DNA of 39,501 bases, taken from a virus. Taxonomy: Duplodnaviria > Heunggongvirae > Uroviricota > Caudoviricetes. The DNA lies in the IMG/VR virus record IMGVR_UViG_2671180547_000005; one strand, given 5' to 3'. The first letter of the stretch is position 1. Every line of letters begins with the position of its first letter. This document shows positions 2,055 through 39,173 of this stretch, one piece after another. Under the pieces are notes generated by a model that saw only the letters and a list, made by a program, of their open reading frames with translations, ran no database searches and was not told the DNA's origin. A program made the position numbers and the translations under genes.

Positions 2055-4109
2055 ATGTCAGACTCCAAGTGGAAAATGCTCTCCGCCATGCCCGGAGAGT
2101 TTTCAGTCAAGGTTGCCGGTGGCACGGTGGCATTTATTGAAAGCCCTTTCCGCCCTTCGGGTAATAAAGGGGGGATCACCTTCGCAGACTGCGTGATCCG
2201 CTTCAGCACGAAAGAGCCATTATGGGTAATGCCGGTATCCGGTAATCCCAGTGCAGAAATCACCAGTTCAGGCGTGACTGGCATCATTCCAATCACATCT
2301 GACGTGGCCGGAACGCTCACGCCCTCCGACTGGAATGCACCGGATAACGCCGGGCCTTCCGGTAGCACGAATGGCAGCAGTTCAGAGCCGGAATATTACT
2401 TTGTTGTCATTCTCGCGGGTCAGTCAAATGGCATGGCCTACGGCGAGGGGCTGCCGTTACCGGATTCGTTTGACCGCCCGGACCCACGCATTAAGCAACT
2501 GGCACGCCGCAGTACGGTAACGCCCAACGGTACGTCGTGTACATACAACGACATCATTCCGGCAGACCACTGCCTGCATGATGTTCAGGATATGAGCGGG
2601 ATAAACCACCCGAAAGCTGATCTGGCAAAAGGCCAGTACGGGACTGTCGGTCAGGGGTTGCATATTGCCAAAAAACTGCTTCCCTATATCCCACAGAATG
2701 CCGGGATACTTCTGGTGCCCTGTTGTCGTGGCGGGTCAGCATTCACCACTGGAGCCGACGGCTCATTCAGTGAGGCCAGCGGTGCTTCCGCTGATTCTTC
2801 ACGCTGGGGGGCCGGTAAACCTCTGTATCAGGACCTGGTAAGCCGCACCAAAGTCGCGCTGGCGAAAAACCCGAAAAACAAACTTCTGGCTGTGGTCTGG
2901 ATGCAGGGAGAGGCAGACCTTGCCTCAGGAAGCCAGCAGCATAATAGTTTATTCACGGCCATGGTTCAGCAGTTCAGAACTGACCTGGCTCCGCTTGCTG
3001 CGCAGTGCGTGAGTGGAAATGCCACCACGGTGCCGTGGATTTGCGGTGATACCACGTATTACTGGAAAAACGCTGGCACCGATAAATATGAGGCAGTATA
3101 CGGTGGCTACAAAGGCAAGGAAGCACAGAAAATTTTCTTTGTACCGTTCCTGACGGATGAGAATGGACAGAGCACGCCAACGAATGCTCCGGCGGAAGAC
3201 CCGGATATTGTGGCTGTCGGGTATTACGGTGCAGCATCCCGAACCCAGGGCAGTTTTGTTTCGACACAGCGTGACAGCCATTTCAGCTCATGGGCACGCA
3301 GGGGCGTCATTTCAGACCGTCTGGCCTCAGCTATTATGCTCCATGCAGGGCGCACGGCTGAACTGATGCGTGGGCAGACCGTGACACCACCGGATGAGAA
3401 GCCGTCACCTGATACACCATCAAAACCGTCCACGCCACCCGCAGACACCACGACGATGAGTACGCTATTTGCTTACCGGGCATCTGAGTCTGAAGGACGG
3501 TTGACACCACAGGGTTGGGCTGCCGGAGGTGGCAAGGCTCAAATCGTGGATGATGCCGGAGCCAGCGGGGGTAAGGCAATGAAACTGACCAAGGAAACAG
3601 GAAGAGCCCCCTGGTACCTTGAGCATGATGCTGGTAATGGTGCGGACCTGCTGGGTAAAGGTGGTCTTGTCAGTTGTCGTTTTAAACTCGATGGCGCGCT
3701 TACGGCTAATCAGTACGCACTGGCGCTGTACTGGCCGGTTTCTGCCCTGCCGCAAGGGGTTACTCTGGAAGGAAATGCCGGTCATAACCTGCTGGCATCG
3801 TTCTACGTACAGAGCGATGCCACAGACCTTAACGTGATGTATCACAAAGGAAACACGGCGCAGAACACGAAGCTGGGGTCATTCGGCGCATTTAATAACG
3901 AATGGCATACGCTGGGCTTCCGTTTTGCCGGTAACAACAGTATTGAGGTGACGCCGGTCATTGATGGTAAGGACGGGACACCATTCATGCTGTCGCAGTC
4001 TCCGGTCGGCACGTTTACGGCAGACAAGTTGCGCGTGACCGATATCACTAAAAATGCGACTTACCCGGTACTGATTGACAGTATCGTGGTGGAAGTGAAT
4101 AACGCGTAA
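2055..4109 (+). CDS. NanS-p-like sialate O-acetylesterase (SASA/SGNH domain) with Pro/Thr linker and C-terminal lectin-like domain
   Basis: 684 aa; VVILAGQSNGMAYGEG matches the GQSN motif of the sialate O-acetylesterase family; size and modular layout resemble prophage NanS-p proteins. Confidence 0.6.
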   Translation: MSDSKWKMLSAMPGEFSVKVAGGTVAFIESPFRPSGNKGGITFADCVIRFSTKEPLWVMPVSGNPSAEITSSGVTGIIPITSDVAGTLTPSDWNAPDNAGPSGSTNGSSSEPEYYFVVILAGQSNGMAYGEGLPLPDSFDRPDPRIKQLARRSTVTPNGTSCTYNDIIPADHCLHDVQDMSGINHPKADLAKGQYGTVGQGLHIAKKLLPYIPQNAGILLVPCCRGGSAFTTGADGSFSEASGASADSSRWGAGKPLYQDLVSRTKVALAKNPKNKLLAVVWMQGEADLASGSQQHNSLFTAMVQQFRTDLAPLAAQCVSGNATTVPWICGDTTYYWKNAGTDKYEAVYGGYKGKEAQKIFFVPFLTDENGQSTPTNAPAEDPDIVAVGYYGAASRTQGSFVSTQRDSHFSSWARRGVISDRLASAIMLHAGRTAELMRGQTVTPPDEKPSPDTPSKPSTPPADTTTMSTLFAYRASESEGRLTPQGWAAGGGKAQIVDDAGASGGKAMKLTKETGRAPWYLEHDAGNGADLLGKGGLVSCRFKLDGALTANQYALALYWPVSALPQGVTLEGNAGHNLLASFYVQSDATDLNVMYHKGNTAQNTKLGSFGAFNNEWHTLGFRFAGNNSIEVTPVIDGKDGTPFMLSQSPVGTFTADKLRVTDITKNATYPVLIDSIVVEVNNA

Positions 4110-5400: not shown

Positions 5401-5443
5401 GAGTGATAAAGATATCAACAACAAAGCAGGAGGTTATGCGGCC

Positions 5444-5644
5444 ATGTATCGAAACATACGGTGCCGACATTGTAACAAGCTACTGGCACGAGCCAGCTTC
5501 AGTTATCTGGAAGTTAAATGTCCGCGCTGTAAAACCCTCAATCAAATCACATCTCAGAGCGCCACAGAGCACCCCACATACACAAGGAAATCCTGTCGTG
5601 GGGAACAGAAAGCAAGTTACATCCCGTATCATCAGCACGCCTGA
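5444..5644 (+). CDS. com: Com-like zinc-finger translational activator of mom
   Basis: 66 aa from the internal ATG with an upstream AGGAGG; CxxC ... CPRC zinc-finger pattern as in Mu Com. Confidence 0.7.
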
Positions 5645-6335
5645 ACTTATTCACTATAACGACAATATCGTCGGTTATGGCTCCCGTGAGTTACGGGTTG
5701 AGACAATAAGTTGCTGGCTGGCCCGGCTGGTCGTCGTCAATAAACATTACAGCCATCGTTTCGTAAATAATTCCTACCTTCATCTGGGCATATTTTCAGA
5801 ACGGGAGCTGGTTGGCGTAATGCAATGGGGTTATGCCCTTAATCCAAACAATGGTGCACGCGTCGTAACTGGCACGCAGAACCGCGAATATATGGAGCTT
5901 AACCGGTTATGGCTGCATGACTGTATGCCGAGAAACTCCGAATCAAGGGCAATCAGTTACGCGCTCAAACTAATCAGACAACTTTATCCGCAGGTGCAGT
6001 GGGTTCAGTCGTTTGCAGATGAGCGTTGTGGCTGTCTTGGTGTCGTGTACCAGGCAAGCAATTTTGATTATGTAGGCAGTCATGAAACAACATTCTATGA
6101 ACTTGATGGCGAGTGGTATCACGAGATTTGCAAGAATGCAATCAAACGAGGAGGACAGCGAGGTGAACATCTGCGGGCTAATATCGACAGAGCCAGTGTT
6201 CATAAATTCCGTCAGTTTCGTTACATCCGGTTTCTGGACAAGAGAGCCAGAAAACGCCTTAACACAAAGCTATTCAAAGTCCAGCCTTACCCAAAACCAC
6301 AAACAGTTAAAACTGGTTTGAAAGAGAGTGAATGA
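5598..6335 (+). CDS. mom: Mom-like DNA modification protein
   Basis: Overlaps the 3' end of com in another frame; GTG at 5598 preceded by AAGGAAA; about 245 aa; last gene before the phage end, as in Mu. Start codon inferred. Confidence 0.55.
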
Positions 6336-22738: not shown

Positions 22739-24311
22739 CCAGCATCCCCTTCATTTCCGCAGCAAACATGGCATCACTGAGCAGCGTCATCAGGCGGGAA
22801 TCATCCATTTCACGGTAAAGGGCAGGCAGGTCTGCCAGTGCCTCCGCCAGCCCCCGCGTTCTGATGACATCAATGACCGGCTCCAGCACCGGATCGATGG
22901 CCTCCTGTAAGCGGCGGGCAGGCACCGCGTCCCCCATGTCGTCCAGTTCATCACGCGGCGTGTTTTTCGCTTCCGGCAGTCGGGCTGAAAGCGCCGTCTG
23001 TTCTGTCTTTTCCTGTTTTTCCGGTAGCGTTTCCCTGTCAGGCATGGCCGGTTCATTACTGCTCTGACGGACACGGAATATGGCTTCACCGGGCGTGGGC
23101 TGTGGAATACCGGTCTGATCCCGTACCCAGGGATCAGGAATATCCATCCCCGCACTGAGTTGCATCACCGCACTGGCTATTTTGGTGATATCCCCCGGTT
23201 CTTTGGTCTGGAAACAGATACGCGGCAGGCGACGGATATCAATGGCGTGGGCGGTGTTCAGGGCATACAGCGGATACACCAGATCGCGGTTCAGGGTTGC
23301 AGCCAGCTGGCGTAAATCAGAATCCCTGATTTCCCGGCGCACCTCGTTATGCACCTCACCCAGCGAGCGCGCGCCTTTGTCTCCGGCTTCTGTGGTCAGC
23401 GTGCCGCCGAGTATTGCTTTGGAGATGGAACGCTCACCCCACGAAATCATGGTTTCAAACGGATCGGCCTGACCGTTCGCTGCCGCCTGAAACTCCAGCG
23501 ACATCCCGGCCGGGATGATCCCGCCTGTACGTCGCCCGATATCCATCACCGCCCGCATCAGGGCACTTTTCTGCTCCGGTGTTGCCCCGGACGGGTATTT
23601 CCCGACCTTCATTGGCAGGCCGTACACCTCCAGAAATTCCGCCAGATCGCGCACGGAATAGTTTTTGAAAATGAACGGCCAGATAAGCGTTCTGACAAGC
23701 CCCGTCGCACCACCGTAGCCGGTGCGTGAACGCGACTGATGCACTATCCAGCCAAAGGGCTGAAACGCCACCCCGGCATGGCTGCCGTCACGCAGCCGCA
23801 GTTCGCTCAAATCATCCGGGTTAAGGCAGAAATGCCCGCTGTCACGCCAGCGGATGGCGCGGATGATGTGCATTTTACCGAGCATCCCGTGCTCAATTTC
23901 CATGCAGGAATAGCCCTTCAGGATGGCATCCGTGGCGTCAAACAGCATGGCATCAAACCAGTCTGCGGAATGCAGATATTCGTCGAGCATTTCCGCGTCC
24001 TTTTTCTCATTCGCGCTGGCGTTCGGTGGCGGCTCAATACTCCATGGCACCCCCTGAATGGCAAGACGTCGCTTGCCCAGCTCCGCAAAAAGGTGGGTGT
24101 CCTTTTCTTCAATATCAGCGGCCAGATCGGACTGGGCAATCAGATCGCCACGTTCAGCCCCGCGAAGGCACTGCGCCGCCCGGTTCGGGGTGATACCCGA
24201 AGCCGGATGTTCAATATAACGGCTGGCAATCTGCGGAATATCCAGCGCGGCACTCTGCATCTCCGGGTCAAAGGAGAAAGGTTTTCCGTCAGTATCAATG
24301 ATGCGTCCCAC
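22722..24311 (-). CDS. Portal protein (Mu H-like)
   Basis: 529 aa following the terminase. Confidence 0.8.
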   Translation of the reverse strand: MGRIIDTDGKPFSFDPEMQSAALDIPQIASRYIEHPASGITPNRAAQCLRGAERGDLIAQSDLAADIEEKDTHLFAELGKRRLAIQGVPWSIEPPPNASANEKKDAEMLDEYLHSADWFDAMLFDATDAILKGYSCMEIEHGMLGKMHIIRAIRWRDSGHFCLNPDDLSELRLRDGSHAGVAFQPFGWIVHQSRSRTGYGGATGLVRTLIWPFIFKNYSVRDLAEFLEVYGLPMKVGKYPSGATPEQKSALMRAVMDIGRRTGGIIPAGMSLEFQAAANGQADPFETMISWGERSISKAILGGTLTTEAGDKGARSLGEVHNEVRREIRDSDLRQLAATLNRDLVYPLYALNTAHAIDIRRLPRICFQTKEPGDITKIASAVMQLSAGMDIPDPWVRDQTGIPQPTPGEAIFRVRQSSNEPAMPDRETLPEKQEKTEQTALSARLPEAKNTPRDELDDMGDAVPARRLQEAIDPVLEPVIDVIRTRGLAEALADLPALYREMDDSRLMTLLSDAMFAAEMKGMLDGSGD

Positions 24312-25978
24312 TACCAGCCCCCCCGATCAAATTCATGATATGCCTCATCGTCATCACGATAACCGCCCTCCATTGCCCGCGACCGCTCCTGTAGCGCCTG
24401 ACAGGCTGATTCATCCAGGATGAAGCCCTCCATGTATGACGCCCGGTTTGCCATACAGAGCGCCACGGCAAAATCACCATGGCGGCGGGCGTTCGCAGCC
24501 GTTGCGTTCTGGTCCTTCGTGCGCCCCTTGTCGATTTGCGGGATACCATTCACTACCTTCACATGGCGCAAATCATCAAGCGTGGTCTGATGGCGGGCGA
24601 CGAGGATATTCTGATCTTCAAACTCGGCTTTCAGTTTTGGCATCCACTCGCCGTACCACTTCGGCGACAACATCACGCAGTCGATGATGTCCGGGCCAAA
24701 GGCCAGCAGTGCGGCCTCTGCCAGATAGCCGCCGTTACCGGTGGCGTCGAACGCCGCACCGACCAGCGCCGGAACGCGGGTCAGGATGTACATCATCACC
24801 TGTTCCTGCTGGGCATACGGCAGGTTGCGCAGCTCCACGCGAAACACCTCGCGCTTTGCCAGGGATTCGGTGATTTCCAGCAGCACAAAGCAGGACAGGT
24901 CACCGGTGCGGGCAAAGTCTTCCCCGAAGCTGAAGCGGGAACGGGGATTTAATTTCTCTAAAAGCGGTTTTAAATGTTCTTCACACCAGGTTAAAACTTC
25001 CGATTCACGCAGCCATGCGGCACGGCTGATGAAGTTGTCCGGGGCTTCAAACGTCAGAATCGGGATGTCGCGGATCATCGCCATTTCAATAAGCGCGTGG
25101 GGGATATAGGCACCGCCGGATTTTTTCGGGATACAGCCGTATTCCTCGTCGGCATCCTCACGGGTCGGGGCGTTTTTGTAGAGATCATCACGCCATTTCT
25201 GCTCGCTTTCCGGTGACCATTCCTGATCGGTGACGTAACAGATACGACGGTACAGCCCGTCCGCAATGGCATCATCCAGGGTTATGCGGTGGACGCTGTA
25301 ATCCTTGCGCCCCTCGCGGGCTTCCTGAATGTACTGATTAAACAGATTATCGACGCCGTTATGCGTGGAGATAATACGCACGCGCGCGCCCCACATAGTG
25401 AGCGCCATTGCCGCCTTGAGAAGCTCATCCAGTGACTCGTGGAACGCGGCTTCATCAATCACCACATCCCCCTGAAGGCCGCGCAGGTTTGACGGACGGG
25501 AAGACAATGCCTGAATTTTGAATCCACTGTTCGGAAAGCGGATCATGTAGGTCAAAATTTCTTCTTTTTTATCCCGATCCCAGAATGTCTGCTCATACAC
25601 ATCAGCATCTGCCAGCTGGTTAAAGGCACGGGAGAACAGCGCGCAGGCAGAAATATATTCCAGCGCCATCTCCTGCTTTGATCCCACATAAAACACATTG
25701 CGGCCACCACGACGCTTCGGTTTTGCAGCAGTAATGACGTTACGCCCGGCTTCCGCCCAGGTAAGACCGGTGCGGCGGGATTTCTCCGCGATGCAGACCT
25801 GACTTTCATCTGCAAACCAGCGGGCCTGATAATCCAGAAACACCGGCATATCACCGGGCAAATCAAGGCTGTCCGGCACATCCACGCCCAGCAGGGCTTT
25901 TTCACCTGACAGATCAATTTTGCGGGGAGGCGTCATTTGCATCAGTGAAGGCGACGTTTCTCTGGCTTTGTTCATCAT
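24311..25978 (-). CDS. Terminase large subunit (Mu gp28-like)
   Basis: 555 aa; position and size. Confidence 0.8.
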   Translation of the reverse strand: MMNKARETSPSLMQMTPPRKIDLSGEKALLGVDVPDSLDLPGDMPVFLDYQARWFADESQVCIAEKSRRTGLTWAEAGRNVITAAKPKRRGGRNVFYVGSKQEMALEYISACALFSRAFNQLADADVYEQTFWDRDKKEEILTYMIRFPNSGFKIQALSSRPSNLRGLQGDVVIDEAAFHESLDELLKAAMALTMWGARVRIISTHNGVDNLFNQYIQEAREGRKDYSVHRITLDDAIADGLYRRICYVTDQEWSPESEQKWRDDLYKNAPTREDADEEYGCIPKKSGGAYIPHALIEMAMIRDIPILTFEAPDNFISRAAWLRESEVLTWCEEHLKPLLEKLNPRSRFSFGEDFARTGDLSCFVLLEITESLAKREVFRVELRNLPYAQQEQVMMYILTRVPALVGAAFDATGNGGYLAEAALLAFGPDIIDCVMLSPKWYGEWMPKLKAEFEDQNILVARHQTTLDDLRHVKVVNGIPQIDKGRTKDQNATAANARRHGDFAVALCMANRASYMEGFILDESACQALQERSRAMEGGYRDDDEAYHEFDRGGW

Positions 25979-26223
25979 GCTTTACCTGTCAGAATGCTTT
26001 TGATTCGGGACTCAAGCTCTTCAGTCATCACGTCCACGCCGCTCAACTCATCAGTGGCAGCCTCTGCCAGCAGCGAATGCAGTTGTTCCAGGGATATTTC
26101 CCCGGCAATGCTGAGTTCAGTCAACTCACGACATACCTTTATGGTTTCAGGAGGTAACTGTGTTGCAAGACTGAATGCTTTCTGATGGGCACTGCTCATC
26201 AGTGAGCGGTTATCTGTTGCCAT
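25975..26223 (-). CDS. Small protein sharing a C-terminal domain with the upstream gp27-like protein
   Basis: 82 aa; C-terminus AATDELSGVDVMTEELESRIKSILTGKA versus AVTDELRGVDGMSEQIEFRIRQMLLGKA in the neighbour. Confidence 0.5.
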   Translation of the reverse strand: MATDNRSLMSSAHQKAFSLATQLPPETIKVCRELTELSIAGEISLEQLHSLLAEAATDELSGVDVMTEELESRIKSILTGKA

Positions 26224-26233
26224 GATTCACCTC

Positions 26234-26815
26234 CTACGCCTTACCCAGCAGCATCTGCCTGATACGGAATTCGATCTGCTCGCTCATGCCATCCACGCCG
26301 CGCAACTCATCGGTGACCGCATTCGCCATCTCTTCAGCAAATGCGGCCCGGATTTCTTTTTCACGCTTAATGCTGCGCTCGGCGGCACTTTCTGCACGCT
26401 GTGCCGACAGGAGGATGTCCTTAATAAGGCGCATATCCACATCGCTGTCGCTGTTCAGGGATTCGGTGGCGGCACGCAGACGGCGGTACATCAGGGCACG
26501 GGACATCTCCAGAATCAGTGCCGTGGTTTCACCGGTCGGCTTATCCCCCAGTTCGGCCATCATGGCTTTTGTCTGCTCGCGTAAATCACGCAGATTACGG
26601 GCAATCAGCTCATTACGGGAGGCTTCCCGGCTGATGGCCGCCGGTGAGAGCTGCTGCTCTTCCGGCAGACCTGCTTCACGGATCAGACGGTTGATTTCCT
26701 CGCGGATCTGGACCTGCGTCAGACGTTTTTCACGCAGCATTTCCAGCAGCGGCTTACGGATGCTGTCGGGGAGCAAATCCACCTTGCGTACACGGCCACG
26801 CGCTGGCTTATCCAT
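26234..26815 (-). CDS. Mu gp27-like protein (putative terminase small subunit)
   Basis: 193 aa immediately upstream of the terminase large subunit. Confidence 0.6.
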   Translation of the reverse strand: MDKPARGRVRKVDLLPDSIRKPLLEMLREKRLTQVQIREEINRLIREAGLPEEQQLSPAAISREASRNELIARNLRDLREQTKAMMAELGDKPTGETTALILEMSRALMYRRLRAATESLNSDSDVDMRLIKDILLSAQRAESAAERSIKREKEIRAAFAEEMANAVTDELRGVDGMSEQIEFRIRQMLLGKA

Positions 26816-26817
26816 CG

Positions 26818-27108
26818 TTACCCCCTTGCGCGTGGTTTCTTCACACCCGGAACGGTGGCGCGGCCTTCCGCCACATCCTGACCCCGGCCGGTCAGTTCAG
26901 CGATGAAATAACCGTTAACAAGCGTGCGCTTACGCACCAGTCCCTGCTCGGCAAGCCAGGCAATGTGGGTATGAACGGTGTCGCGGGACACGCGGTGACC
27001 GTAATCATCCAGGCAGTCCTGAAGCACGGATTCGCCCAGTTCGCCGTTGTAATCCGCCAGCGACCGCAGAATGACAAGACGCTGATCTTCAGTAATGAAA
27101 TCACTCAT
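26818..27108 (-). CDS. Small putative winged-helix DNA-binding protein
   Basis: 96 aa; position. Confidence 0.4.
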   Translation of the reverse strand: MSDFITEDQRLVILRSLADYNGELGESVLQDCLDDYGHRVSRDTVHTHIAWLAEQGLVRKRTLVNGYFIAELTGRGQDVAEGRATVPGVKKPRARG

Positions 27109-35564: not shown

Positions 35565-37652
35565 TCAGGCCAGCGGATCACTTTCTTTTAATTTCGCTTC
35601 GAGCAGTTGCAATCCCCGCTGGAAATTACGCTCGTATTCTTCATCAGGTTCATCGTCAGCGACCGGTTGCTGAACGGTCACCGTATTACCCACAGGGCGG
35701 TATATGTTTTCCAGCCAGGGCTCCTGCGGCTTGTGCTCCAGCACGTTGACAACCTCATCCTCGGCATCACGGATTTTTTCCTCTGCGCGTTTACGCATGC
35801 CTTTAAGGCGCTGCTGCTGTTTGTAGTATTCCGCGCTGACAGGGAAGGCTTCGCGTTTATTGCCGTCCCATACCGCCTCGCAAATCACGCTGCCATCCGG
35901 GCGGCGCACGGTAATTCGTTCGGCATCATGAATGTCATAGCTGATAAGTACCTTACGGCCATGCTCGTCACGCAGCTCGGGCGCGTAGTAAATATTATTC
36001 AGCCAGCGTATTTCACAGCGTCTTACAGGGCGCTCCACCATCGGCCGGAACATATCCCGCAGTTCAACATCGGACAGCCATTCAATTTCCGTGTCCTCTT
36101 CCGCCAGGCGTTTTTTTCTGAACTCCGCCGGGCTGTAATGTTTACCGTTCGGCTTCATGGGTAATTCATCGTGCGGCCGGTTGTTGTACCACTCAACACC
36201 GTCACGAATGGCATCAATCAGTTCAGACCAGGACGGTAAATCACGCATCGCTGACTGCTGCCGGGCGTTCAGCCGTTTGCCCTGTTGCAGGGCACTGAAT
36301 GCCGAGCGTAAATCGCGGTTGGTTTTACGTAACGTCTCGCGATCTGCTCCTTTCCCGAAATAGGTGCGGTATTTACGGGCTATGCGCATCGGTAATGTGC
36401 GGTTAAGCCGTTCGATAATGCCCCGTCCCTGCGGATTACCGGCAATCCCTGTCGGGTGATTAATCCCCAGTCGTGGCAGTATCCCCACAATCTCCTTATC
36501 CAGGACGTCGGCGGTTTCCCCGGAGCCATTATCCGAGTAATACAGAAACGGTTTGCCATGATGGCGAATACCGTGCTGTATGGCACCGGCTACGGCGAAA
36601 ACATTTTCAGCCAGGTCAAGGCTCCAGCCCACCACAAAGCGCGTGCCACCGTCGATAACAAAGGTCACTTCCGGTGCGAATGGCCGCCCGTGAACCGGGT
36701 GCGCGCATTTCAGCTTCATGCCGTGACCGTCACCAATCCAGACATAATTCACCGGCATTCTGGACCAGTCGCGGCGCGTGAATCCCTCAAGCTGACGGTA
36801 TTCACTGCCAGTTACCCGGCCTTTTTGTTTCACCACTTCCGGCAGTTTCTTCATTGCGCGGCGAATGGTGTCATAAGAGGGCATGATATCGAGCATATAA
36901 GGCTCATCAGCGTGCCGGTGCTGCCATTCAGCAACAAAATCCTCGTAAGCCTCGGTCATTGGTCGGCCGTTTGACTGGCGATACTGCGCCAGAAATTCGG
37001 GCAGCCAGTTAATATCTTCGGCTTTTATTTCCTGGCGTTTACCCGGTGCCAGTAAAAGCAGGCGTTCAGCGGCGTTCTGTGCCTTGTTAAAGGCCGCAAT
37101 CCAGCGTTTCAGCGTGATTTCACTCAACGCGCGGCTGTTTCCCTTTTTGGCGTTCGCCGTCTCAACCATTGCCACAATGCGCTCGTCCAGTTGTGATCGT
37201 GCCAGGCTGTTAACGAGGAACCGGATAGCTTTAGCGCAGCTGAAACCGGGTTGTTGCGTGAATTTCAGCACCTCACTGACGATCGCAATGCGTGCGTCTG
37301 CCACCTGGCGCTGGTTTTCAGTCAGGGCATTGAGGCGTTCGACCATCAGTTGTGGTGATCCGCGATATGCCTCCACCGCATCAACCACGGCAGACGAGCG
37401 TCTGGCCTTTGTCACCACCGGAGCCGGTGATTCATCGGCTTTTTGCGTCATCAGTTGCAGGGCATAACGTTCGCGTAATGCCTGCTGTGTCACTTCAGGT
37501 AAACAGTCAATGCTGTATTCAAAACCTTTAGCGCCTTTCTTGCGGCGTCTGCTGGTTTCGCTGGTTGCATACTTCCTGATTGAATAGCGAACGCCTTGCT
37601 CCGTTCCCGGCATCCCCGGTAATCCAACCAGTTCTTTAACTGAAGCAAACAT
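35565..37652 (-). CDS. Mu-type DDE transposase (MuA-like)
   Basis: 695 aa; follows ner and precedes B as in Mu. Confidence 0.85.
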   Translation of the reverse strand: MFASVKELVGLPGMPGTEQGVRYSIRKYATSETSRRRKKGAKGFEYSIDCLPEVTQQALRERYALQLMTQKADESPAPVVTKARRSSAVVDAVEAYRGSPQLMVERLNALTENQRQVADARIAIVSEVLKFTQQPGFSCAKAIRFLVNSLARSQLDERIVAMVETANAKKGNSRALSEITLKRWIAAFNKAQNAAERLLLLAPGKRQEIKAEDINWLPEFLAQYRQSNGRPMTEAYEDFVAEWQHRHADEPYMLDIMPSYDTIRRAMKKLPEVVKQKGRVTGSEYRQLEGFTRRDWSRMPVNYVWIGDGHGMKLKCAHPVHGRPFAPEVTFVIDGGTRFVVGWSLDLAENVFAVAGAIQHGIRHHGKPFLYYSDNGSGETADVLDKEIVGILPRLGINHPTGIAGNPQGRGIIERLNRTLPMRIARKYRTYFGKGADRETLRKTNRDLRSAFSALQQGKRLNARQQSAMRDLPSWSELIDAIRDGVEWYNNRPHDELPMKPNGKHYSPAEFRKKRLAEEDTEIEWLSDVELRDMFRPMVERPVRRCEIRWLNNIYYAPELRDEHGRKVLISYDIHDAERITVRRPDGSVICEAVWDGNKREAFPVSAEYYKQQQRLKGMRKRAEEKIRDAEDEVVNVLEHKPQEPWLENIYRPVGNTVTVQQPVADDEPDEEYERNFQRGLQLLEAKLKESDPLA

Positions 37653-38070: not shown

Positions 38071-38616
38071 ATGAACAAGCAAACAACAACATCTCTTTCT
38101 TTTCCTGGTGGTAGAAAAGAAAGCATTGCTGAGCGTCTGAAAAGGCTGATTGGCTCCCGCAGCGTCAGAGCTGCAGCAAGAGATTGGGGGCTTTCATTTT
38201 CAACACTAAACAATTATCTGTCTCGTGGCACTGAGCCATCCTTAAGTGTCGCCCTTCAGATTGCGTCTATCGAAGGAGTAAGTGTTGAGTGGCTATGTGG
38301 ATTCAGTGATGCATCACAAGTGAATCGGTGTGAGATCAAGGAAAATCAAGATGAAAGCAAGAAGATAATTATGACGATTATCAGCGCACTTGATGAAAAA
38401 GACTTAGAGCAGCTATCGAAAAATTTGGTTCTGAATGGAGCCAAGTACTTAGCTCGGTTGTTAGAGCCTGAAAATCAAGATCTAATCCGCTTAGAAGGAA
38501 GGAAAAGAATAGCTGCATTACAGCTTGAAGGTATGTCTGACGAACGCGTCAGAGAGATTTTGGAAGAAACTGAGAGAAGTCGCAAATCTAACGCGGTAGA
38601 ACCAAAAGCGGGTTAA
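38071..38616 (+). CDS. Phage repressor, XRE/CI-type HTH
   Basis: 181 aa with an N-terminal HTH; divergent from ner at the phage left end. Confidence 0.7.
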   Translation: MNKQTTTSLSFPGGRKESIAERLKRLIGSRSVRAAARDWGLSFSTLNNYLSRGTEPSLSVALQIASIEGVSVEWLCGFSDASQVNRCEIKENQDESKKIIMTIISALDEKDLEQLSKNLVLNGAKYLARLLEPENQDLIRLEGRKRIAALQLEGMSDERVREILEETERSRKSNAVEPKAG

Positions 38617-38689: not shown

Positions 38690-38862
38690 AGTATCAAATG
38701 AGTTGCCGATTTTATAATAAATGACTAATTATTGCACAATCGGTATCAAATAGACCTTATCCGCACATCTAGCCATCACCTGTTTTATTTCAGTATCTTA
38801 CAGGTGATTTCACCTCCTTTCACTAAACCCCTTGTCGGTATCAAATGATTCACCTGGTTATA
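38690..38862. repeat. Phage left-end (attL-like) cluster of three spaced transposase-site repeats
   Basis: CAGTATCAAATGAG (38690), CGGTATCAAATAG (38742), CGGTATCAAATGATTCA (38835); inferred terminus at 38862. Confidence 0.6.
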
Positions 38863-39173
38863 TGTCGCCAGTCGATACCTTCCAGCAGCATCGCCAGCTG
38901 CGCCTGTGTAAGGAACACTTTGCCATCACGGGCTGACGGCCAGGCGAAGCGCCCACGCTCCAGCCGTTTGGTCAGGAGGCACAGTCCGTCACTGGTGGAC
39001 CACAGCAGTTTAACCTGACTGCCGCTGCGGCCCCGGAAAATGAAAACATGGCCGGACATGGGATCGTCTTTCAGCGCCGTCTGTACTTTCGCAGCCAGGC
39101 CGTTGAAGCCATTTCTCATATCGGTGATACCGGCAACCAGCCAAATTTTGATCCCGGAAGGTAACGGGATCAT
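38853..39173 (-). CDS. tnpB: IS66-family TnpB (orf2), 3' end interrupted at the phage junction
   Basis: 107 aa with the characteristic IWLVAGITDMR ... LLEGIDWR; the stop codon coincides with the first bases of the phage end. Confidence 0.75.

Follow-up and report, generated by a model that had tools for sequence, protein, structure and literature searches.

The stretch of DNA analysed here, 39,501 nucleotides long and hereafter called the window, is a Mu-like prophage of E. coli. Its small and large terminase subunit genes (TerS, gp27-like, and TerL) lie on the minus strand and are separated by a small open reading frame, orf82, whose last codons resemble those of gp27. An initial annotation of this DNA had interpreted the resemblance as an old internal duplication, and its two reading frames, 25975..26223 (-) and 26234..26815 (-), are correct as given. 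The features on which the analysis rests are the following.

26234..26815, minus strand: TerS, the gp27-like small terminase subunit, 193 aa (Pfam PF11985, phrog_426)
26234..26329, minus strand: gp27 tail, copy 1, codons 163-193 and the TAG stop, MANAVTDELRGVDGMSEQIEFRIRQMLLGKA, delimited by alignment to the orf82 tail
26234..26281, minus strand: final 48 nt of gp27 (…QIEFRIRQMLLGKA*), which carry a divergent allele and form the left side of a hypervariable island
26224..26236, minus strand: gp27 TAG stop, Shine-Dalgarno-like GGAGGT and 5-nt spacer to the orf82 start codon, TAGGAGGTGAATCATG, by direct reading
25975..26223, minus strand: orf82, the 82-aa reading frame between gp27 and TerL
26071..26223, minus strand: N-terminal domain of orf82, codons 1-51, a member of the junction small-ORF family (phrog_30922)
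25975..26070, minus strand: orf82 tail, copy 2, codons 52-82 and the TGA stop, LAEAATDELSGVDVMTEELESRIKSILTGKA, delimited by alignment to the gp27 tail
25975..25978, minus strand: ATGATG, where orf82 stop and TerL start overlap, read from the sequence
24311..25978, minus strand: TerL, the large terminase subunit, homologue of Mu gp28, 554 or 555 aa (phrog_2)
25922-25975: 5'-terminal ~54 nt of TerL, which make up the right side of the hypervariable island

The terminase genes and the signals around orf82

The 193-aa reading frame belongs to the Mu gp27 family: it matches PF11985 Phage_Mu_Gp27 (DUF3486) over the full profile (1-173/173, residues 12-193, E=3e-33) with 116 bits against a cut-off of 28, matches phrog_426 'terminase small subunit' at E=2e-54, and is 56.5% identical to Mu gp27. 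Its neighbour TerL matches phrog_2 'terminase large subunit' (E=5e-43). No solved structure related to gp27 was found, and its AF2 model is of low confidence (mean pLDDT 58), so that secondary structure alone was used; in this model the tail comprises the end of a long helix, a loop and a short terminal helix. The tail is evolutionarily frozen. Its 11 alleles differ by 0 non-synonymous and 19 synonymous changes, gp27 as a whole has an omega of about 0.01, and the tail motif is kept as far as Mu.

In lambda and P22 the C-terminal region of TerS binds TerL (review PMC9611059), and by analogy gp27 probably contacts TerL through its tail. Since TerL is highly variable over its first ~18 residues while the gp27 tail stays conserved, any partner site probably lies elsewhere in TerL. 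Literature searches on Mu gp27/gp28 and DUF3486 returned nothing on the tail or on a junction reading frame, and no report of binding of the gp27 tail to gp28 in Mu.

A GGAGGT ribosome-binding site stands 5 nt before the orf82 start, in a stretch identical in loci L006 and L018. The orf82 TGA overlaps the first TerL ATG by 4 nt (ATGA) and the second, which is the RefSeq start, by 1 nt; relatives that lack the insert have an equivalent stop/start overlap between gp27 and TerL (gap -1). A consensus scan of both strands of the gp27-TerL interval detected no sigma-70-like promoter, nor did the coding strand hold a terminator-like site there; the sole minus-strand terminator match falls within TerL. 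This arrangement suggests that orf82 would be co-transcribed in the late operon and translated from its strong ribosome-binding site, and that the stop/start overlap may pass ribosomes on to TerL. Joining of gp27 and orf82 by readthrough or frameshift was considered and rejected: a TAA lies 8 codons past the TAG, and orf82 is in another frame.

Homologous tails on unrelated proteins

The last ~30 aa of the two proteins can indeed be aligned, as the initial annotation had noticed. BLASTP pairs orf82 residues 52-82 with gp27 residues 163-193 without a gap (31 residues, 18/31 identical, 24/31 positive, E=3e-10), and a Smith-Waterman comparison of the two proteins scores 90, against 32 +/- 5.5 for 2000 shuffles (maximum 56; z=10.6). 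The underlying DNA, described earlier as visibly similar but diverged, is 66% identical over the last 96 nt, with 14/31 third codon positions shared, and its best local segment (69 nt) scores 43 against 19.6 +/- 2.3, a value reached by 0/1000 codon shuffles. Since both comparisons, of protein and of DNA, exceed their shuffles by about 10 SD, the chance-level identity that would have undone the observation is excluded. The two tails lie in the same orientation, 259 bp apart; a repeat search (seed 9, minimum length 20) missed the pair, as expected of a method that is insensitive to repeats near 65% identity. Both copies fit the consensus …TDELxGVDxMxExxExRIxxxLxGKA. The orf82 tail nevertheless has Ser at a position that is Arg in almost all gp27 tails examined, Mu included (His in one lineage), and Val at a position that is Gly in all of them.

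Upstream of the 31 shared codons the resemblance stops. No DNA similarity is found there, the score being below the codon-shuffle mean, and profile-profile comparison of orf82 with gp27 is likewise null. In a MAFFT alignment 10/12 nt match immediately before the repeat, but this requires 5-nt gaps and a change of frame, and was set aside as alignment noise. Any remaining homology of orf82 residues 1-51 to gp27 residues 1-162 was rejected on the same DNA comparison with codon shuffles and on an hhalign probability of 0.5%, the value obtained when the tail-less small-ORF family is compared with gp27. Moreover, orf82 has no match to PF11985 or phrog_426 at E<=0.1.

The N-terminal domain of orf82 has relatives of its own. 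It matches phrog_30922 at E=7e-52, and residues 4-46 are 35% identical to a 65-aa reading frame of Citrobacter (BLASTP, E=4e-7). A family profile recovers about 25 Salmonella proteins of 65 aa (E=1e-16 to 1e-28) and retrieves both the E. coli and the Salmonella/Citrobacter groups. The latter are unannotated 'hypothetical proteins' of about 65 aa (P0133-P0157), encoded in Mu-like prophages. A position between gp27 and TerL was confirmed for the small reading frames of loci L006, L012, L034 and L038, and orf82 belongs with this family both by domain homology and by this position. A gp27-like tail is absent from all of the ~65-aa Salmonella/Citrobacter proteins; only the E. coli forms of 79-82 aa have one. 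The wider family emerged only from reading the junction reading frames in fetched loci: a first word-indexed protein search with orf82 returned E. coli proteins only, and HMMER against 1.84 billion representative proteins gave 4 matches, all close variants or fragments. A 65-aa member also shows a weak match to phrog_220 (E=2.5e-5).

The AF2 model of orf82, of moderate confidence (pLDDT 73), predicts three helices (5-20, 25-39, 45-60), with pLDDT 74-87 over residues 1-50. No solved structure was matched in a Foldseek search of the PDB (best E=1.4), a sequence search of the PDB gave nothing credible, and Pfam matches to the N-terminal domain were weak and inconsistent (E>=0.04), with none to a helix-turn-helix family. 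Small terminase subunits combine an N-terminal DNA-binding helix-turn-helix with a central oligomerisation core (review PMC9611059). The long oligomerisation helices of this class are absent from the orf82 model.

A hypervariable junction and the origin of orf82

The usual arrangement is found in Mu, in E. coli prophages of the Sp18 type and in some of the sampled Salmonella-type loci: gp27 ends in the 31-residue tail, and its stop overlaps or abuts the TerL start; in some lineages an accessory reading frame of 65-87 aa stands between the two genes. In Mu itself a gap of 7 nt, with no reading frame, separates genes 27 and 28. Other alleles of the junction are orf67 followed by a 120-nt spacer (L006), a 9-codon mini-ORF (L018, L023), orf65, orf87 and a 43-nt gap, so that in enterobacterial Mu-like prophages the gp27/TerL junction is a hypervariable island that takes at least six alternative forms. 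IMG/VR yielded 32 loci; a scan of genome contigs with the gp27 alignment found 2 only, its back-translated patterns being too specific.

orf82 is present in 25 of ~231 carrier E. coli genomes; strain 102651 (NZ_CP189662) is one lysogen that has it. About 206/231 carrier records lack exactly 258 bp, and there gp27 abuts TerL. Both tail copies occur together in those 25 genomes, and not in Mu or the ~206 records. Absent also from part of the Salmonella-type loci, orf82 is not a universal component required for packaging but a small, dispensable gene. Every one of the 25 complete genomes, and every IMG/VR contig with orf82, preserves an intact reading frame.

The repeat sits in this small island within a backbone that is 94-97% identical. 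Compared with the Sp18 type, gp27 is 95% identical over nt 1-486 and 69% over nt 535-582, and TerL is 67% identical over nt 1-54 and 94-97% farther in. The last 48 nt of gp27 are 100% identical to those of L006 and 58-69% to the other tails compared. This allele thus accompanies a tail-less small reading frame in L006, and it recurs beside the 9-codon mini-ORF in L018 and L023, these being the other insert variants among E. coli-type prophages. The closer counterpart of the orf82 tail is the gp27 tail of the Sp18 type (77-79% of nucleotides, here taken as 78%; 22/31 aa), not that of its own neighbour (66%; 18/31 aa). Furthermore, the orf82 tail and TerL start are collinear with the gp27 tail and TerL start of the Sp18 type over 128 nt at about 76% identity, in 206 E. 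coli records.

Selection on the two tails also differs. orf82 is weakly constrained, with an omega of about 0.46 (p=0.003 against neutrality), and its N-terminal domain taken alone is below 1 as well (p=0.005). Among 7 alleles the tail shows 8 non-synonymous and 5 synonymous changes, an omega of about 0.5 that is indistinguishable from neutral, against 0:19 for the gp27 tail.

We consider it likely that orf82 is a chimeric gene, produced by recombination between related Mu-like phages at the TerS/TerL junction. The 3' end of an accessory reading frame would have been replaced, in frame, by the block 'gp27 tail + TerL start' of a relative without the insert; in this way an unrelated three-helix domain would have acquired a second copy of the tail, and the upstream gp27 would have kept its own, different tail allele. 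The orf82 tail would then be mostly a passenger, which may persist in frame through its overlap with the TerL start and not as a competitor for TerL binding. No prophage without the insert was found whose tail and TerL start are near-identical to the orf82 block, the best being 76-78%; this points to an unsampled donor or to an old event, whose direction we infer. As the omega of orf82 is below 1, the gene is not a dead remnant, and the word 'passenger' may understate a real function.

The initial annotation was right that two gp27 C-terminal modules stand side by side, the second ending a small reading frame before TerL. Its further step, an internal duplication, would make orf82 a truncated gp27 paralogue, born in situ by partial tandem duplication of the adjacent 3' end and followed by long divergence. 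Homologous tails in the same orientation, 259 bp apart, are what such an event would leave, and the indel relative to insert-free prophages can be drawn with both its ends inside the repeat, as a duplication or as a deletion between repeats. The copies are, however, not each other's closest relatives, given the greater similarity of the orf82 tail to the Sp18 type, and the last 48 nt of the presumed parent are themselves a divergent allele found at other loci. The 51 codons upstream are unlike any part of gp27 in DNA, protein or profile and are homologous to a tail-less family; nothing in gp27 or TerL corresponds to these 153 nt, and insert-free relatives hold no source for this unique part of about 150 nt. 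We regard a local duplication as very unlikely. The 65-aa family ends about where the tail begins, and its last residues weakly resemble the start of the tail (…VLEDKVKKV vs …VTDELRGV), possibly a trace of homology. If so, an ancient duplication whose tail was later lost in Salmonella would be conceivable.

A recombinant origin would also be compatible with orf82 being a selected terminase accessory, in which the TerS tail would anchor the three-helix domain to TerL or to the gp27 oligomer, tuning packaging or acting as a decoy against the terminase of a co-resident Mu-like prophage. Its position and apparent co-expression with TerS and TerL, the intact frame in complete genomes and contigs, and an omega below 1 agree with such a role, as do the metagenome-derived variants P0003 and P0004, which differ from orf82 by in-frame deletions only. 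Both tails are predicted to form a helix end, a loop and an amphipathic helix, and the TerS C-terminus is the TerL-binding region of lambda and P22 (PMC9611059). Some E. coli genomes carry 2-4 such prophages, and the orf82 tail is nearer to the gp27 of a rival Sp18-type prophage than to its own. Against this, the tail evolves almost neutrally and has lost the near-universal Arg and the invariant Gly of gp27 tails; about 90% of closely related prophages, and Mu, do without orf82; frameshifted or truncated variants occur in databases (P0008, P0010, P0011); and no known domain or solved structure matches the family. We judge this reading to be unlikely, and a selected role as a TerL competitor is possible but not favoured. 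The more specific proposal that orf82 is a tail mimic, in which a captured TerS docking module reaches TerL and modulates packaging or sabotages competing Mu-like prophages, seems to us highly improbable.

At the other extreme, orf82 could be an inconsequential recombination scar, its frame open fortuitously or solely to let ribosomes arrive at the start of TerL. Such a scar would fit the narrow spread of orf82 (E. coli only, with 4 matches in the 1.84 billion representative proteins), its high omega, the GTG start in 3/7 alleles, the two very different variants of the N-terminal 17 residues and the mini-ORF alleles, which show that the site tolerates loss of the reading frame. Yet an omega significantly below 1, over the whole gene and over the N-terminal domain, is not what a scar predicts. 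Moreover, a homologous 65-aa family persists in Salmonella and Citrobacter with an omega of about 0.41, the ribosome-binding site is strong and correctly spaced, and the model is a compact three-helix domain. This makes a mere scar rather improbable, and the chimeric gene remains the reading that we prefer.

Significance and comparison with known systems

orf82 is a clean, small-scale case of mosaicism shifting a short module from the end of TerS onto an unrelated small protein. Its practical value is modest: a RefSeq 'hypothetical protein' is explained, and caution is advised with tblastn matches of gp27, which span two genes in prophages that carry orf82. The junction harbours an uncharacterised small-ORF family, and the 31-residue tail is the part of Mu gp27 most worth examining for contact with TerL. 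Should the tail copy prove to bind TerL, it would lend itself to mapping the little-studied TerS-TerL interface of Mu.

With Mu gp27/DUF3486, orf82 has in common the last 31 residues and a place directly upstream of TerL with a stop/start overlap. It lacks the other 162 residues, which include the helix-turn-helix region and the long central helices, and it differs from gp27 in a constraint that is about 50-fold weaker and in the loss of conserved tail residues. The Salmonella/Citrobacter reading frames of ~65 aa are like orf82 in locus, in start context (gp27 stop, ribosome-binding site, ATG), in fast evolution (omega about 0.4) and in a stop that overlaps the TerL start; unlike orf82, they end in …EDKVKKV and have no gp27-like tail.

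The gp27 tail, for its part, matches the TerL-binding tails of lambda gpNu1 and P22 gp3 in position and in predicted loop-plus-helix form. In those phages the tail is a short, flexible C-terminal moiety of a TerS encoded next to TerL (PMC9611059). There is no sequence relationship between them and the gp27 tail.

The genomes of temperate phages contain mosaic module junctions and chimeric reading frames, which are explained by illegitimate or homeologous recombination. The gp27/TerL junction resembles them in being a short island of many alleles between backbones that are 94-97% identical, with boundaries at or just inside gene ends and an in-frame fusion. It is unlike the usual mosaic junction in that the orf82 boundary lies inside a conserved module, which is thereby duplicated onto an unrelated domain. 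As in a classical 'moron', presence of the gene is polymorphic, but no promoter or terminator of its own is predicted for orf82 by the consensus scan. The case of orf82 is thus one of ordinary phage mosaicism and not a new system.

The prophage and its terminase genes

The window carries a Mu-like prophage of Escherichia coli that is essentially complete and encoded on the minus strand, and E. coli strain 102651 shows 99.9% identity to its gp27/orf82 region. Besides the MuA transposase, Pfam matches cover MuB, GemA, Mor, a Mu-type portal, MuF, structural proteins (major head protein gpT, tail sheath, tape measure, baseplate J), a Gin-type invertase and Mom. Around gp27 and orf82 the genes follow the order DUF2730 (gp25-like), 96-aa gp26-like ORF, 193-aa gp27-like ORF, 82-aa ORF (orf82) and 555-aa ORF, the last being the large terminase subunit (TerL; phrog_2, E=5e-43). 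Within the Mu gp27 family the 193-aa ORF is unremarkable: a full-length member of PF11985 (Phage_Mu_Gp27, E=3e-33), it also belongs to phrog_426 'terminase small subunit' (TerS) and is 56.5% identical to Mu gp27.

Features of the window
35565-37652: MuA transposase (Pfam)
26234-26815, minus: gp27
25975-26223, minus: orf82
24311-25978, minus: TerL
26222-26584 and 26286-26906, plus: antisense ORFs of 120 and 206 aa opposite gp27, Ser/Arg-rich, absent from RefSeq annotation
2055-4109, plus: 684-aa protein, SASA sialate O-acetylesterase-type domain and C-terminal DUF6645
38850-39173, minus: IS66 Orf2 (TnpB_IS66, E=1e-37)

TerL is named by PHROGs only; it has no Pfam match at E<=0.1 and RefSeq labels it 'hypothetical protein'. 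In the Mu reference record NC_000929 its homologue gp28 carries the label 'putative portal protein', apparently a mis-annotation. The antisense ORFs are most likely codon-composition artefacts. The SASA/DUF6645 protein, lying between the invertase (1397-1969) and Mom (5403-6335), resembles cargo carried in the prophage's variable end, and IS66 Orf2 adjoins the repressor end, beyond an HTH_3 protein at 38071-38616. An apparent gp26-gp27 fusion in a Logan assembly (P0013, 291 aa, 96 + 193 aa joined) probably stems from faulty sequencing or assembly, or from a mutation removing the gp26 stop.

Two related tails on unrelated proteins

The close alignment of the orf82 and gp27 ends proposed in the initial annotation is confirmed, as is the similar but diverged DNA beneath it. 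BLASTP gives an ungapped alignment of residues 52-82 of orf82 to residues 163-193 of gp27 (18/31 identical, 24/31 positive, E=3e-10), and the Smith-Waterman score lies 10.6 SD over 2000 shuffles. The DNA is 66% identical across the last 96 nt; its best local segment (69 nt) stands 10 SD above codon shuffles, 0/1000 of which reach its score. Third codon positions agree at just 14 of 31, and the copies are therefore old relative to each other. This similarity has a sharp upstream limit: the 51 upstream codons of orf82 resemble gp27 neither in DNA alignment (score under the shuffle mean) nor in profile comparison.

Residues 4-46 of orf82 match a 65-aa Citrobacter ORF (35% identity, E=4e-7), and the family profile retrieves some 25 clusters of Salmonella 'hypothetical proteins' 65 aa long (E=1e-16 to 1e-28) as well as E. 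coli forms of 79-82 aa. The 65-67-aa members terminate about where the tail starts in orf82, and none contains the gp27-like tail. Judged from these sequences, the N-terminal part of orf82 has an ancestry of its own, apart from gp27. The family has no Pfam domain, and sequence search gives it no relative in the PDB. AF2 models orf82 (mean pLDDT 73) as three helices (5-20, 25-39, 45-60) followed by a loop of low confidence (60-66) and a terminal helix (68-79); this model found no structural match. The gp27 model, itself of low confidence, closes in the same way: a long helix stops at …TDEL and is followed by a loop and a short helix.

Codons 1-17 of orf82 (26172-26223) encode two strongly divergent forms, MATDNRSLMSSAHQKAF and MEKNIRALIISARHEAF (L003, P0005, P0006), unlike residues 18-51, which are nearly invariant; 3/7 alleles start with GTG instead of ATG. 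The 65-aa ORF of a Citrobacter braakii locus (L012, protein P0133) weakly matches phrog_220 'minor head protein and DNA pilot' (profile positions 917-974/1338, E=2.5e-5), which could reflect a small domain also present inside a large head protein, or chance.

A mosaic island at the gp27/TerL junction

This prophage type is present in about 231 complete E. coli genomes, of which only 25 contain orf82-specific sequence. The other 206 records, among them Sp18 of O157 Sakai, are shorter here by exactly 258 bp, and in them the stop codon of gp27 overlaps the start of TerL. In phage Mu, genes 27 and 28 lie 7 nt apart, with no ORF between them. Carriage of both genes by Mu-like phages is therefore limited to a minority lineage of E. 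coli prophages. Among 34 fetched loci, the junction takes at least six states.

States of the gp27/TerL junction
No insert
orf82
67-aa ORF, then 120-nt spacer (L006)
9-codon mini-ORF, MATDWFSYE or MATDRFSYE (L018, L023)
65-aa ORF (C. braakii L012; Salmonella/Citrobacter-type IMG/VR contigs L034, L038), grouped with an 87-aa ORF (L037)
43-nt gap (L041, L042)

The mini-ORF, directly after gp27 in two IMG/VR contigs, has its ribosome-binding site and start unchanged and overlaps with the beginning of TerL. Either it arose from the 67-aa allele by deletion, or the site is empty. L023 also has an interrupted gp27. The non-coding spacer (L006 6205-6323) separates the 67-aa ORF from TerL in that allele only.

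Identity of the window to one Sp18-type (insert-free) prophage
gp27 nt 1-486: 95%
gp27 nt 487-534: 85%
gp27 nt 535-582: 69%
orf82 tail against Sp18 gp27 tail: first 48 nt 77%, last 48 nt 79%
TerL nt 1-54: 67%
TerL nt 55-1000: 94-97%

In the 206 E. coli records, 'gp27 tail plus TerL start' is collinear with the orf82 tail over 128 nt, so that this tail occupies the position of the gp27 tail in insert-free phages. An old internal duplication had been proposed; the tails are indeed paralogous, but the event was no local duplication of the adjacent gene, since the orf82 tail is closer to the Sp18 gp27 tail (77-79%) than to its own neighbour (66%) and the upstream codons show no similarity to gp27. 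The simplest history would be that an insert-bearing Mu-like genome recombined with an insert-free one, so that the small ORF, cut back to its 5' two-thirds, was fused in frame to a resident gp27 tail. The unusual gp27 end of the window (…QIEFRIRQMLLGKA) is identical in DNA in L006 and encoded likewise by L018, and the small ORF beside it in these two loci is tail-less or a stub only.

The first ~18 TerL residues (25922-25978; also L006, L012, L024, L033, L041) are hypervariable, the rest of TerL being 94-97% identical. At least six unrelated-looking N-termini all converge at …P(P/S)RKIDL, beside a conserved gp27 tail.

Constraint, possible working and classification

Substitutions on a minimum spanning tree of distinct alleles
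orf82 whole, 7 alleles: non-synonymous 32.5, synonymous 22.5, omega 0.46 (p=0.003 against neutrality)
orf82 tail, 7 alleles: 8 and 5, omega 0.51 (not distinguishable from neutral)
gp27 whole (same genomes), 11 alleles: 2 and 68, omega 0.01
gp27 tail, 11 alleles: 0 and 19, omega 0

The orf82 tail carries Ser at a position that is Arg in almost all the gp27 tails examined, Mu included (His in a few), and Val at one that is Gly in all of them. The 65-aa family changes about as fast as orf82 (pN/pS 0.41 vs 0.09 for gp27). From these counts and changes, orf82 is probably a real but weakly constrained accessory protein, and its tail probably does not perform the strongly selected job of the gp27 tail.

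A strong ribosome-binding site (GGAGGT, 5-nt spacer) precedes orf82. Between gp27 and TerL, promoter-like sites are absent from both strands and terminator-like sites from the coding strand. The stop codon of orf82 overlaps the start of TerL (ATGATG), as the gp27 stop does in insert-free phages. The gene would thus share a transcript with the terminase genes and be coupled to TerL in translation, and the main constraint on its tail may be an open frame through to that overlap.

In lambda and P22, TerL is bound by the C-terminal region of TerS (review PMC9611059), and by analogy the conserved tail of gp27 can reasonably be proposed as the candidate contact to TerL in Mu-like phages. As the first ~18 TerL residues differ widely between alleles and the gp27 tail hardly changes, the partner surface is unlikely to lie in that segment. 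The suggestion that orf82 competes for the same partner found no support, and we consider it improbable that orf82 is a TerS-tail mimic targeting TerL, perhaps of rival prophages.

orf82 does not qualify as a small terminase: it fails the family profile, lacks the protein body and is dispensable. It is a member of an unannotated family of junction small ORFs; in this lineage specifically, the family's domain is fused to a terminase tail. Literature searches returned nothing on this fusion. Phage recombination commonly yields chimeric ORFs at mosaic junctions, and orf82 is a new, tidy example of these rather than a new kind of system.
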